44,172 nucleotides of DNA, from the NCBI GenBank assembly GCA_002269645.1, contig NIVC01004494.1, forward strand, positions 1 to 44,172, read 5' to 3'. This document shows positions 5,141 to 18,985 of the stretch, piece after piece. The notes below the pieces were generated by a model, which was not told the DNA's origin, did no database searches, and worked only from the letters and a program-made list of their open reading frames with translations. The position numbers and the translations under genes were made by a program. The number at the start of each line of letters is the position of its first letter. Within the stretch, counting starts at the first letter, position 1. The DNA is from Macrostomum lignano. Taxonomy: Eukaryota.

Positions 5141-5170
5141 TTCTTATTTTATTTTATTTTTAGTTAAAAA

Positions 5171-6457
5171 ATGAACGACCCACTGACACCAGTTTTCTAC
5201 AAAATTAACAAGCCTATTTTGAGTGATGATAGCACAATCAAAGCGACACAAGTTAGAGTTCCGAGTCACGAGAACCAGAATGAAACTAATTTGGGTCCAG
5301 GTCAAACACTGACATTTACATACAATGGATGTTCGTCTCTGGTTAGTGTGCACAGTCTTAAGAGCGGCTTCCATATGACATTTCAATTCAAGACAAAAGG
5401 TGGTGCGGATGCGGCTCGTGCTAACGTTGACAAGCATGATGCGGATGTGGCTCTGATCAGTAACTTTTGGGCGTACATGTTCAAGGAGTTTAGTGTATCG
5501 AATGGGAGCACTGAGTTGGAGCGAATCGCCAACTTTGGAATTGTCTATGACGCTCATTGTTTGATCGAGAATCCTGATTTTATTCAGTTGGGAAGTGGTG
5601 CGGGTTTTATCGCAGATGAAAAAGAAGGAGATATCAATGACAGTGGCTATAAAAAGAGGAAGAAGAGATACAACTATGCATTGCAAGGTGCTGATGATGC
5701 TGCTAAAAACCCGCTGTATCGGTCTGTTGATGTATTTGTACCACTGAGATTCATGAGTGGATTCTGTAATACATTTAATCGACTGACTAGTAACTTTAGC
5801 TACACCTTTAGGATGACTAGAGATGATCGCAGTAGAGTGTTGTGGACTGGGGCGGACCACACAAGGATGGAGGTGAAGCTAACCGGAATCGAGCTGTATT
5901 TGGAAGTCATTGAGCCAAAGACTGCACTAAAAGCGGATTATCTTAAGGCAATAGAGAAGGACATTGATGTTGCATACACAGCCTACATGTGTCGAGATGA
6001 GCGAAACGAAACTAGAACAAATATCTGCATTAAAGAGGGATCATGCAGCAATCCAAGGTATATCATTATTAATATGAGAAACCCAAATAGCATCATACGC
6101 TACATGCATGGAGACGTGCGGTCCATTCAGCATGAAATCAGTGATAATCTTTACCCTGCACTGCCACAAAATGGAGATTTCAGTCAAAACAAGATTAGCA
6201 AATTTTACAGCGAGTTGGTCGACTTGGCTGTGAAAGAGAACAATGGAATTGCTATCACTGCTCTCCAATATGGAACTCTATATCCGATGTTTGGCGCTGA
6301 TGTGTCTGCCAGACAAATGCCTACTGATAACAGCCCTGTGAATATCGTGACTAACATTGAAAGGACTACCGCAACACCCGTGGACCTGTACATTATCTAT
6401 GCATTTGAGAGGAAGGTGAAGCTTAACATGATCAACAATTCATCCAGTAAAGTTTAA
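5171..6457 (+). CDS. Major capsid protein (double jelly-roll, Polinton PY-type), copy 1, intact
   Basis: 428 aa, directly upstream of the penton. C-terminal PRYIII...YPALPQNGDFSQN..S..YSEL pattern recalls Polinton MCPs. Confidence 0.85.
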   Translation: MNDPLTPVFYKINKPILSDDSTIKATQVRVPSHENQNETNLGPGQTLTFTYNGCSSLVSVHSLKSGFHMTFQFKTKGGADAARANVDKHDADVALISNFWAYMFKEFSVSNGSTELERIANFGIVYDAHCLIENPDFIQLGSGAGFIADEKEGDINDSGYKKRKKRYNYALQGADDAAKNPLYRSVDVFVPLRFMSGFCNTFNRLTSNFSYTFRMTRDDRSRVLWTGADHTRMEVKLTGIELYLEVIEPKTALKADYLKAIEKDIDVAYTAYMCRDERNETRTNICIKEGSCSNPRYIIINMRNPNSIIRYMHGDVRSIQHEISDNLYPALPQNGDFSQNKISKFYSELVDLAVKENNGIAITALQYGTLYPMFGADVSARQMPTDNSPVNIVTNIERTTATPVDLYIIYAFERKVKLNMINNSSSKV

Positions 6458-6479
6458 ATATTTTTTTGTGGGTGAAAAA

Positions 6480-7343
6480 ATGGAAGCCATAGCCGAAAGA
6501 CTAAACAACATTGTTTCACACTCTAAGGAGAGCATTCCTATTACAATAACCGGGCGAATTAATGACTCAAACGGGATGTTTGTTGAAAAATTAGAGCAGG
6601 CGATTCGCCTGGATCCAGGCGCTAATTACCATGTCTATCTTAACGACTTCACCGGTTGGTCAAACGTTCCTAATGTGATGGCAGCAAATAATAAGTTTTA
6701 TTACAAATGGAAAGGTGCAGCAGCAGACCCTGTGGTATTCCATGTGAGCACGCAAAGTGTGGATACCTACAATAACTTTCTAGAAAATGTCTTTACTAAG
6801 AGAGGCCATTTTGAGACACCTGATGCGAGTAAGCCAGAGAAGAAACTGTTCCCTGTCAAACTAACCTATGATCTCACTGTAATGAGAGTGGTCATGCAAG
6901 TTCACAAAAATGCGGAGGTTGAGTTTAAAGATGACACTTGGTATAGGGAACTAGGATTCGAGAAGAAAGTTTATAAGGCAGAATCCGCGGCGCAGACCGC
7001 CACTCAAGCATCGAGGACCGTTAAAATGGCCCGGGAAAATGTAAGCGGTTTGTTCTTAGCACCCAATATTGCAGACATTGTAAAGGGTTTGAATATTCTA
7101 ATCAGAAGCAATCTCAGTCTTGATTGGGTATTTAAGGGAAAGCGAACGAATATTTTGTACAACATCTCCAACTCTGTTGCTGGAGGACAGATGGTGGTAG
7201 AGAAACCAAATCCAGTGAAAAGAGTTGTATTGAGTAATAAAGAGATTCACGAGATTGTGCTACAGTTTGAGACTGAAGATGGGATGGGCGTTGATTTTAA
7301 TGGGGAAGAGTTTGTATTGACGTTGATCATTGAAAGAATGTAA
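6480..7343 (+). CDS. Minor capsid (penton) protein, copy 1, intact
   Basis: ATG at 6480 (AAAAAATG). Motifs WSNVPNV..ANNKFYY and NILYNI...G..VVEKPNP...I.EI.L.FETEDG..VDFNGE fit Polinton single jelly-roll pentons. Confidence 0.85.
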   Translation: MEAIAERLNNIVSHSKESIPITITGRINDSNGMFVEKLEQAIRLDPGANYHVYLNDFTGWSNVPNVMAANNKFYYKWKGAAADPVVFHVSTQSVDTYNNFLENVFTKRGHFETPDASKPEKKLFPVKLTYDLTVMRVVMQVHKNAEVEFKDDTWYRELGFEKKVYKAESAAQTATQASRTVKMARENVSGLFLAPNIADIVKGLNILIRSNLSLDWVFKGKRTNILYNISNSVAGGQMVVEKPNPVKRVVLSNKEIHEIVLQFETEDGMGVDFNGEEFVLTLIIERM

Positions 7344-7347
7344 GAAA

Positions 7348-7587
7348 TCACAATTGTCTAATGATTTCTACAAAGTTATAGTAGCTGTCGTAATCTTTTA
7401 CATAGGTTACTCCATACTTATGAAACCAGTGTCTTTGGAGAGCTAGATTAATATTAGGGACATTGATATCAACGTCGGGCCAATATTTTCTCATGTACTC
7501 GCTGCATTCTAGTTTGCATCGGTACTTACTCTTGTAATTAGGCTCGTGCGCTTTGTAATAAGAACCTGGAGAGACAACTGGAAACAT
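7348..7587 (-). CDS. 79-aa Tyr-rich hypothetical protein, copy 1
   Basis: ORF is open and conserved in both elements, with AAAAATG start context; no family recognised. Confidence 0.7.
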   Translation of the reverse strand: MFPVVSPGSYYKAHEPNYKSKYRCKLECSEYMRKYWPDVDINVPNINLALQRHWFHKYGVTYVKDYDSYYNFVEIIRQL

Positions 7588-7599
7588 TTTTAGAGAAAA

Positions 7600-17147: not shown

Positions 17148-17196
17148 TTTTTTATGTAAAAAAACTTTTTCTTTTTAAACTTGTGTATTTAAAACG

Positions 17197-17285
17197 CGTG
17201 TGTCTTTTTTCGGGATGTGTATGTGTGTGTCTTTTTTCGGGTTGTGTGTGTCTCTTTGCGGGATGTGTGTGTCTCTTTTTTTTAC
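17197..17285. repeat. Degenerate GT-rich tandem repeat (GTGTGTCTTTTTTCGGGAT-like) upstream of ATPase copy 2
   Basis: About four degenerate units at the position orthologous to the 21-bp repeat of element 1. Confidence 0.75.
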
Positions 17286-17346
17286 TAGTCCTACATCCGA
17301 CTAGTCCTACACCCTCACACCTCTTTTACCGTCAGGGTGCACCAAA

Positions 17347-17727
17347 TTAGTCAAATTTAAAACCGCCTCCTTTCTTATATTCAGCTCTCATCTTTGCGTA
17401 GATGGCTGGATCGACACTATCTGCACTCGGTGCAAGGGGTTGAATATCTGGTATTGATTTCCGGGTTTCATTAACCGTATCCTTTATCTTTTTGGCTGCT
17501 GTGGCTACACTGCCAGCCGCTTCGGCAACGTTCTTGATGTTCTCTTTGTTCTCTCCAATGACCTTAAAAATCTTGGCCCCTTGAGCGATCAAATCAGCAA
17601 GGCCATTCCCAGAGCGTTCTTTTCTTGGATAGTGGCCTGCAGGGAAAAGTCCAGATCCGCGTTTAATGAGATTAAGTTCCTCTTTGTCGTAGTATTTGTC
17701 AATGTCTTTTTCGAAAATAATTGGCAT
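17347..17727 (-). CDS. 126-aa putative core/membrane-active precursor, copy 2
   Basis: Near-identical N-terminal ~85 aa to copy 1, divergent C-terminal part, ends GGG-FKFD. Confidence 0.6.
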   Translation of the reverse strand: MPIIFEKDIDKYYDKEELNLIKRGSGLFPAGHYPRKERSGNGLADLIAQGAKIFKVIGENKENIKNVAEAAGSVATAAKKIKDTVNETRKSIPDIQPLAPSADSVDPAIYAKMRAEYKKGGGFKFD

Positions 17728-17743
17728 CTTTTTAAATAGAAAT

Positions 17744-18955
17744 TTATTTTTTGTTAAACCGTGAAAGCAAAAGTTCTCTTGCTCTTTTATCGATATATTT
17801 TCTCTCAAGCATTTTGTCCAGGATGTTGACAAATTCTTTTCTATTCTCGTCTTTCATTCCGGTCTTTGCCGCTCCTAGAAGAACAGCTAACCGCTTGTAG
17901 AATTCAGGCATGCCTTTTCCGGAAGAGCTTGGAGGTGATTCGAATGATTGGTCAGAGGAGGAACTGTCATGTGGCGCTTGTCTTTGTTAAGGTGTGAATA
18001 CTCTGTCATTGATTCGCTTCATTCGTTCTGGGGAGAGCCGCTCTAATTGTCGCCAAGTATCAGGGTTTGTATCTTTGTACTGGGAAATCTCATTTGGCCC
18101 TGCTTTTTCAAGCGCTTCTAGTACTTGTTCGGGTGTGATTTGTTGCTGTGGCGGTGAAGGTTGTTGTGGTTGTGTTTGTGTTTGTGGTTGCTGCTGTTGT
18201 GGTTGCTGTGGTTGTTGTGGTTGCTGCTGCTGTGGTTGTGGTTGTTGTGGCTGTGGTTGTTGTGGTTGTTGTCTTAAGACCTCTTCTTGATCCGGCAAAC
18301 CAAACCATTGTTTAAAGTATTTGTATTTTCTAAACCTGTTCAAGTCAATCCTGTTTTCATGTAAAATTTTCAAAACACCGTCGTTCTTGAGCATATCTAT
18401 ATCCCTCTCTAAAGCGAAGGTAACAAGATCTTTGTAATTTTCGAACTGCTTTTTAGACGTTTTCTCTAGATTTTTAGTCATGTAGTCGAGTAAACTTTGA
18501 GTGAATGGGATTCGTTTAGTTTCTGCGCCTTTATTGATTAAAATATTTTCCTTTTTCACTTCAATGTTGTAATCCGCCGGTTCCCCGGTAATATTTTTTC
18601 GCCAGGCGCTAATTCCAAAAATATATTTTCCATCATCCAATACGGGGCCAAAAAAGTTATCCGTCACTTTCATCTGCACTGGTTGTCCTGGTTGCTGAGC
18701 CTGTGGTTGTCCCGGTGAAGATGGGATTTTACCCAATGTGTTTTGCAAGTGGCTCTCTTGAATATCATCAACTGCTTCCTTCACAGTGTCGAGGTTTTTC
18801 TTCGCTTCTGTGTATCCGGGTTTGTGAAATTCGGTGGCTGCTTGGACAAAATCATTGTAGGATTGTTGCTCCTTATTTACTAGCCCGGTAACTCGTTTCT
18901 CTGCTTGTGCTAGCTTCTCCAATTCAGATATCTGCTGTGTACTTTTTCGCTTCAT
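17744..18955 (-). pseudogene. Gln/Pro-rich core protein, copy 2, premature stop at 17987-17989
   Basis: CAA (copy 1) is TAA here; downstream sequence still aligns to the copy 1 stop. Confidence 0.78.
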
Positions 18956-18985
18956 TTCTTATTTTATTTTATTTTTAGTTGAAAA

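Follow-up and report, generated by a model that had tools for sequence, protein, structure and literature searches.

The 44,172-nucleotide stretch analysed here in full (the window; contig NIVC01004494.1 of Macrostomum lignano) contains, at positions 1–21842, two homologous copies of an endogenous Polinton/adintovirus, and the remainder holds WSC-domain genes and transposon debris, a content suggestive of an animal host. Pfam matches above the cut-off among the window proteins include an A32 ATPase (PF04665), an rve integrase (PF00665, E 3e-8), an adenain protease (PF00770) and a PLA2 of the parvovirus type (PF08398). Below the cut-off lie a double jelly-roll (DJR) major capsid protein (MCP; PF21738, E 3e-5), nine homologues of which are annotated as PF21738, and a pX-like gene (PF05829, E 5e-5). 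The DNA polymerase gene is present in several pieces over 10448–14271; its first open reading frame (ORF) has no match, and the pieces further along match ORFs for protein-primed DNA polymerase B (pPolB) that are intact in the loci L001 and L005 (E to 1e-46). The hallmark genes of Polinton/Maverick elements are present, namely pPolB (fragmented), rve integrase, A32 ATPase, adenain protease and DJR capsid, and the Pfam and pPolB matches bear out the assignment to Polintons made in an earlier, sequence-only reading of the window. Several genes belong to no known Pfam family. The minor capsid label has no Pfam match and is inferred from synteny and BLAST to relatives, and two unknown window proteins gave unnamed matches or none in the ESM Atlas.

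The two copies share 94.2% identity between 3660–7925 and 17474–21721, and 79.3% between 2331–3344 and 16164–17164. This difference between the capsid region (94%) and the ATPase regions (79%) suggests mosaicism. The likeness of both copies ends at CTACT (7964 and 21842), and the right end of copy 2 is provisionally placed there, where identity to copy 1 stops; Polinton termini have the form AG...CT. No long or terminal inverted repeat was found in the window, nor a left repeat matching copy 2, and the left ends of both copies are either missing or lie beyond the window. Many divergent copies of the element occur in public runs of one organism, with 5540 matching contigs, 85–100% alike, in run X15. 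None of the listed data sets that contain the element is recorded as RNA. Of 42 indels between contigs of the runs and the window, the 12 listed include none in either of the two independent divergent spacers described below; with 5131–5169 left out as a repeat, this carries no weight for spacer length among the copies.

An AT-rich block, sharply bounded at about 27–32 nt, precedes each gene of the element, whether divergent or tandem, and ends in an A-run that touches the ATG (Table 1). The one-sided blocks measure 27, 27, 28, 29, 31, 32 and 42 nt, the longest being that of the ATPase. At 11 starts, the preceding 30 nt contain 0–6 G + C, compared with a mean of 12.6 (minimum 5) at 64 internal methionines (p 1.4e-7). 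Among the 553 ATG triplets on both strands of 2301–17200, 19 have six or fewer G + C upstream. Gene starts account for 14 of the 19, a count that includes two internal methionines chosen post hoc and one duplicate ATPase. Averaged over the window starts, the upstream profile is A-rich from −24 to −19, T-rich from −15 to −10 and A at −6 to −1. TAAA occurs within 8 nt of the TG at 8/11 starts and at 3/64 internal methionines; no enrichment of TAAG, the late motif of baculoviruses, was seen. We conclude with high confidence that each gene has its own AT block of about 27–32 nt, that these blocks are overlaid at divergent pairs, and that their length is a footprint and not a ruler.

Table 1. Positions of the element copies, divergent spacers and AT blocks in the window.
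Feature	Position	Strand	Start codon	Description
Polinton copy 1, right part	1..7964			unrelated insertion at ~120-2330; terminus CTACT at 7964
Polinton copy 2	7965..21842			PLA2, integrase (INT), pX, pPolB region, protease (PRO), unknowns, ATPase, Q-rich, MCP, minor capsid
Q-rich/MCP spacer	5141..5170		5140 (-), 5171 (+)	30 bp; T-run then TAAAAATG on +, A-rich on -
PLA2/rve integrase spacer	8788..8817		8787 (-), 8818 (+)	30 bp, 100% AT; + end TAAATAAATG
Q-rich/MCP spacer, second copy	18956..18985		18955 (-), 18986 (+)	homologue of 5141-5170, one substitution
ATPase block, copy 1	3325..3366	-	3324	T-run, then A-run on ATG; one-sided
126-aa gene block	3914..3944	-	3913	31 nt, one-sided; overlaps 3' end of preceding ORF
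Block between MCP stop and next capsid-module gene	6458..6479	+	6480	22 bp; 19 bp in copy 2
79-aa gene block	7588..7616	-	7587	29 nt, one-sided; end TAAAATG
pX-like gene block	9830..9856	+	9857	27 nt, one-sided; end TTAAATG
DNA polymerase first-ORF block	10421..10447	+	10448	27 nt, one-sided
Adenain-type protease block	14286..14313	+	14314	28 nt, one-sided; end TAAAAAATG
Block at internal methionine of ORF 14720-15505	15437..15463	-	15436	likely true start; post hoc, partly circular
Block at internal methionine of ORF 15522-17147	16332..16360	-	16331	likely separate gene behind ATPase; post hoc
ATPase block, copy 2	17148..17180	-	17147	

The sequence-only reading had started from the divergent gene pairs. 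It reported that three head-to-head pairs are separated by exactly 30 bp and that one spacer is a perfect palindrome, and it proposed that a bidirectional promoter of fixed geometry, about three helical turns long, drives whole blocks of genes and leaves almost no 5′ untranslated region (UTR). The coordinates of the three spacers stand, and their AT content is high (93% at 5141–5170, 100% at 8788–8817 and 90% at 18956–18985). Their independence does not stand, and the sample is reduced to two, because 5141–5170 and 18956–18985 are the same spacer in two copies of one element. A perfect inverted repeat is indeed present at 8792–8817, with 10-bp arms (8792–8801 and 8808–8817), though a 6-nt loop separates the arms and the spacer is no perfect palindrome. 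Shuffled sequences reached this arm length with p = 0.030 (mononucleotide) and 0.031 (dinucleotide; 5000 shuffles each), and the DNA fold has z = −2.4, with 5/200 shuffles equally good. Comparison of the Q-rich/MCP spacer with shuffles revealed no such inverted repeat (p 0.25–0.36). The two independent spacers are alike at 17/30 letters in either orientation, which is the chance level (p 0.31–0.54). A cruciform was considered as the function of the spacers and rejected.

Wider comparison used 80 metagenome loci together with L001, L003 and L081, found through protease and ATPase alignments and dereplicated to 63; these loci are distant, with about 31–42% ATPase identity. Nearer relatives are represented by proteins without their DNA (MCP 71–78% and ATPase 62–78% identical; P0001–P0009 and P0223–P0236 are the closest), and MCP scans of viral, metagenome and genome contigs, a scan with the integrase, and tblastn against phages found no locus of a relative. 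The 63 loci contain 37 head-to-head ORF pairs. In 24 of them the gap is short and AT-rich and adjoins an annotated gene; the partners are in most cases PLA2 and ATPase, and in one case MCP and pX. The 13 pairs left out had negative gaps, gaps of 77–611 bp next to short or broken ORFs, or G + C-rich gaps (two, of 15 and 37 bp, separating short ORFs that have no annotation).

The 24 gaps range from 19 to 64 bp with a median of 35; one is 30 bp and three are 29–31 bp, and there is no periodicity at 10, 10.5 or 11 bp (Rayleigh p 0.75–0.84; about 0.77 at 10.5). Close kin differ by 7–11 bp, as in L099 and L097 (24 and 35 bp, ATPases 96% identical) and in L127 and L131 (41 and 34 bp), and the gaps in L112, L137 and L102 are 29, 35 and 38 bp. 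Equal gaps were met in L109 and L115 (30 and 30 bp, identical ATPase) and in L110 and L123 (22 and 22 bp). Spacing across relatives was the test that the sequence-only reading had set for itself, and the lengths vary freely. Of 23 AT-rich spacers tested, three contain an inverted repeat better than shuffles (p < 0.05). Nor is it supported that the spacers drive whole gene blocks, as the downstream tandem genes each have their own AT block. What speaks for a fixed 30-bp palindromic promoter is that both independent spacers have this length, for which the chance, drawn from the length distribution of relatives, is about 0.03–0.04, and that the length of the Q-rich/MCP spacer is kept between copies 94% identical while the gap between MCP and minor capsid changed from 22 to 19 bp. 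The two 30-bp values are probably unremarkable because six of the seven one-sided blocks in the element are 27–32 nt long. We consider fixed geometry very improbable: it is contradicted at the level of the lineage and could survive just as a constraint private to a sub-lineage. The exact 30-bp spacing itself is unimportant.

The part of the earlier proposal that holds throughout the lineage is that divergent spacers are very short and AT-rich, as seen in the 24 pairs of relatives. An A-run adjoins the ATG at both ends in 18/24 of these spacers, compared with 1.7 in shuffles. Short AT-rich spacers are thus general and free in length, and they owe their symmetry to the presence of one end motif in two copies; the divergent gap is about one block in length because the blocks of two genes are overlaid on opposite strands. 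These spacers are most likely bidirectional promoters formed by overlap, which would leave almost no 5′ UTR. A pattern scan for back-to-back ATAAATG matched at least 120 loci; among the matches listed, four are flanked on either side by ORFs of at least 70 aa, with gaps of 24, 38, 41 and 42 bp and genes that are unclassified.

In the 63 loci, T-A3-7-TG occurs at 95/176 annotated starts and at 24/715 internal methionines, with 26 expected when the upstream 30 nt are shuffled; for TAAATG the values are 31/176, 0/715 and 13.6. The motif follows the ATPase phylogeny (a quick IQ-TREE run of 80 rows, with SH-aLRT as its sole support). A clade of 12 loci (support 99) has TAAATG at 50/63 ORF starts. 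This is not an effect of abutting stop and start codons, because 30/40 starts with a gap of at least 5 bp have TAAATG. A clade of 29 loci (support 86) has T-A3-7-TG at 103/194 starts. Ten loci of equal G + C in two further clades (support 100 each) show the block motif at 1/47 starts, and their upstream G + C of 0.35 matches that of the locus (0.36). For intergenic starts alone, upstream G + C is 0.20 in the TAAATG clade (n 17), 0.15 in the T-A3-7-TG clade (n 131) and 0.36 in the group without blocks (n 19), a contrast with p 7e-4 and 3e-8. The ATPase of the element groups with four proteins without genomic context (99), next to 10 loci in which the block is present at most starts (20/32). In the block-less Polintons, TATA followed by TCAKT, which we take to be an initiator consensus, was observed ahead of some genes (L002:2237–2563, L002:3720–4421, L004:6075–6887 and L151:1745–2527), a layout like that of RNA polymerase II (Pol II) promoters; the count is 4/46, compared with 1/63 and 1/193 in the block clades.

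This arrangement resembles the promoters of poxviruses. According to PMC11980589, the TAAAT of vaccinia late promoters overlaps the start codon and T is found ten bases before it, while intermediate promoters have TAAA, an AT-rich stretch 15–19 nt upstream, and then T; PMC3185747 describes poxvirus promoters as about 30 nt long and overlapping between divergent genes. In the TAAATG clade, T rises to 60% at the position ten bases ahead of TAAAT. The second clade has A at 53–60% at 15–20 nt before TAAA, and T at 52–54% at 8–11 nt. The relatives and the window thus share the T-rich and A-rich upstream layout of poxviruses, as judged by comparison with a text description and not with a poxvirus matrix.

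On this basis, the AT block would be a compact post-replicative promoter of the type used by poxviruses and other nucleocytoplasmic large DNA viruses (NCLDV). Transcription would begin within the A-run, at the ATG itself or slightly ahead of it, by a few bases, and would give a near-leaderless mRNA, possibly with a 5′ poly(A) made by slippage. The loose inverted repeat of the divergent spacers follows from the presence of the same A-run at both ends of the overlaid blocks. Pfam identified no RNA polymerase family in 18 + 4 window proteins, several of which have no family, and poxvirus-type promoters here would for this reason need the enzyme of a helper. Such an enzyme would be supplied by a co-infecting large DNA virus, as for virophages; virophages and a polinton-like virus (PLV) are reported to use the enzyme of their helper (PMC6510173; 10.1101/2022.07.28.501842). 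PMC11296320 records PLVs of the Maverick lineage in entomopoxvirus occlusion bodies. The best explanation overall, to which we give nearly even chances, is a per-gene promoter that is overlapped at divergent pairs and probably read by a helper. That the polymerase of a helper large DNA virus reads the blocks is a possibility we hold slightly more cautiously.

One relative, L144, is a Polinton with both the AT block and a VLTF3-like gene (L144:3–422, PF04947, E 9e-8); the gene belongs to a family of late transcription factors of poxviruses and lies two ORFs ahead of the ATPase. A scan with this protein found no relative.

Several observations weigh against a promoter read by a helper. VLTF3 is present in just 1/44 cluster representatives scanned, and the initiator of the window is loose, with TAAATG at 2/11 starts (0/64 internal methionines) and T-A3-7-TG at 5/11. 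In AT-rich genomes, translation starts commonly have an A-run before the ATG, and many small viral contigs of no assigned class contain AT blocks like these. The clade groups were named after the tree and motif had been seen, and loci of the same clade are not independent observations; the loci compared are distant (about 31–42% in the ATPase) and mostly have another gene partner (PLA2 with ATPase). AATAAA lies within 150 nt of the stop in 4/12 window genes. The many divergent copies in the host would be equally explained by transposition with the host polymerase. A positive control with virophages gave candidate contigs that were unclassifiable (33 proteins against Pfam, three PDB searches) and is not used as support.

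Alternatively, host Pol II could read the blocks as TATA-less poly(dA:dT) promoters with no helper involved, a reading that the many copies in the host would fit. Transcription would then start within or just upstream of the blocks and give very short UTRs, or UTRs overlapping at their 5′ ends, perhaps aided by a factor that the element encodes, for which the window genes of no known family leave room. The A-rich peak about 25 nt before the ATG could bind the TATA-binding protein (TBP), as could the TATAWAW matches of relatives, which are spread over −40 to −1. These matches, however, peak at −10 to −1, too near the ATG for a canonical Pol II box, and TATAWAW is absent from −100 to −1 at all 13 window starts, so that a canonical Pol II TATA promoter was rejected for the window genes. 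ATG-to-ATG gaps down to 19–24 bp also speak against Pol II, as do the commoner occurrence of TATA followed by TCAKT in block-less Polintons and the lack of a TBP family match in 18 + 48 proteins scanned. We regard transcription of the blocks by Pol II as unlikely, although it deserves serious consideration.

A different type of explanation places the blocks on longer or overlapping mRNAs, with promoters elsewhere (e.g. in terminal repeats) and the block acting in translation, as an unstructured A/U-rich leader with a strong start context or as a re-initiation signal. The strongest signal is indeed the A-run at −4 to −1, and the few poly(A) signals near stops fit read-through transcripts, as do convergent gene pairs 4 bp apart. 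Such pairs were observed at 7343–7348, 14715–14720 and 21140–21145, which represent two independent junctions, and gaps of this size have no room for terminators or poly(A) signals. On the other hand, an A peak is followed by a T peak, each at a fixed distance from TAAA, and TAAATG is invariant in one clade; both features are promoter-like, and the alternating strand blocks of genes would require several internal promoters in any case. A translational role is accordingly improbable in our view. Polycistronic transcripts might be resolved by spliced-leader trans-splicing, with the blocks as acceptors made of a U-rich tract and AG. A T-run followed by AG within 10 nt of the ATG is found at 5/11 window starts; AG is not enriched, though, compared with internal methionines (30/64) or, in relatives, with shuffling (38/176 and 47), and the PLA2/integrase spacer contains no G at all. 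The trans-splice acceptor was rejected on these grounds and we give it very little credence.

Other features of the element and of its surroundings were noted. The right end of both copies (7756–7964 and 21552–21842) is an internally repeated non-coding tract in which identity between the copies breaks off at CTACT, like a Polinton terminus, and the two tracts have the top summed contig depth in 4/4 public runs. Seven 21-bp tandem repeats lie between the 126-aa gene and the ATPase of copy 1 (3343–3510), and a different, GT-rich repeat replaces them in copy 2 (17200–17290). Outside the element, three diverged copies (75–79%) of a segment of a host WSC-domain gene (PF01822) occur at 22949–23920, 29677–30696 and 39601–40481, and fragments like Tc1 and retrotransposons were recognized by eye between them.

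PLA2 and integrase are head-to-head in the window, in contrast to relatives, where they form one ORF in 10 dereplicated loci and two adjacent ORFs in 15 (the fused and split loci include L003, L093, L099, L109, L110, L112, L127 and L149). In the split loci, the integrase frame runs into the 3′ end of PLA2 in 14/15 and the frame offset is the same in 11/15; the next methionine is 113 nt away in seven, and the overlap contains a heptamer of the A/T-run type in 11/15, these counts having no chance control. The overlap may reflect programmed recoding or polymerase slippage. Accessory genes of relatives include a Bcl-2 family member (L116:165–551, E 1e-19), a DUF2738 protein (L109:11498–12145, E 4e-21) and, below the cut-off, a PPPDE peptidase-like gene (L149:290–844, E 5e-6).

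Both kinds of promoter, those that a helper shares and those that overlap in poxviruses, have been described before; what would be new is their presence, clade by clade, in Maverick-type Polintons. The literature consulted, which covers few subscription papers and no supplements, contains no description of poxvirus-type promoters in these elements, and a prior description is possible; a term search for ‘promoter’ gave no match in PMC8502044, PMC10748475 or PMC11296320. Activation of Polintons by a helper has been proposed as a hypothesis (PMC8097293), and the expression of animal Polintons and a virophage-like defence against large DNA viruses are raised in the same way in PMC8097293 and PMC11296320. 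We tentatively suggest, as a proposal open to considerable doubt, that Maverick/Polintons have two lifestyles that can be read from sequence: satellites with poxvirus-type promoters, virophage-like and including this element, and users of host Pol II. If so, the satellites await a poxvirus- or asfarvirus-like helper, and the variant of the initiator (TAAATG or T-A4-7-TG) would point to the helper family. A per-gene, clade-specific promoter that is readable from sequence could serve to predict the dependence of an element on a helper and the type of helper required, and it makes the question of Polinton expression directly testable on a 30-bp scale.

The gene content is that of alpha-type adintoviruses and Maverick-Polintons, with pPolB, rve integrase, A32 ATPase, adenain protease, DJR capsid, PLA2 and a pX-like gene (PMC8502044), although PLA2 and pX are separate genes here, unlike in alpha-type adintoviruses. 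The blocks are like vaccinia late (TAAAT-G) and intermediate (TAAA) promoters in their length of about 30 nt, their AT-richness and an initiator on or next to the ATG, and in being T-rich about 10 nt before TAAAT and A-rich 15–19 nt before TAAA (PMC11980589); divergent vaccinia genes also have overlapped promoters (PMC3185747). In contrast to vaccinia, no RNA polymerase or late factors were detected in the element, and the window initiator is a looser A-run (TAAATG 2/11). African swine fever virus (ASFV) late promoters and the yeast pGKL virus-like elements are similar in their AT-rich start region and in a very short UTR, which is predicted for the element; the late median in ASFV is 9 nt (PMC7163114), and pGKL has a TAAAN initiator with slippage (PMC6211774). 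ASFV and pGKL encode their own RNA polymerase, whereas none was detected in the element; an upstream conserved sequence is described for pGKL. Virophages and PLVs differ in their hosts, which are protists or algae, in their helpers, which are Imitervirales, and in their motifs (e.g. AAAATTGA); like that of Polintons, their promoter type varies by clade (PMC6510173; 10.1101/2022.07.28.501842; 10.1101/2025.10.09.676808); the present element is of the Maverick type with pPolB and rve, in an apparently animal genome and with no known helper. It shares with virophages that no RNA polymerase of its own was detected by Pfam, and, like Sputnik/Guarani with mimivirus, Mavirus/EMALE with CroV and Gezel-14T with PgV, it is a small, integrating element that encodes a capsid and has an AT-rich, putative promoter for each gene.

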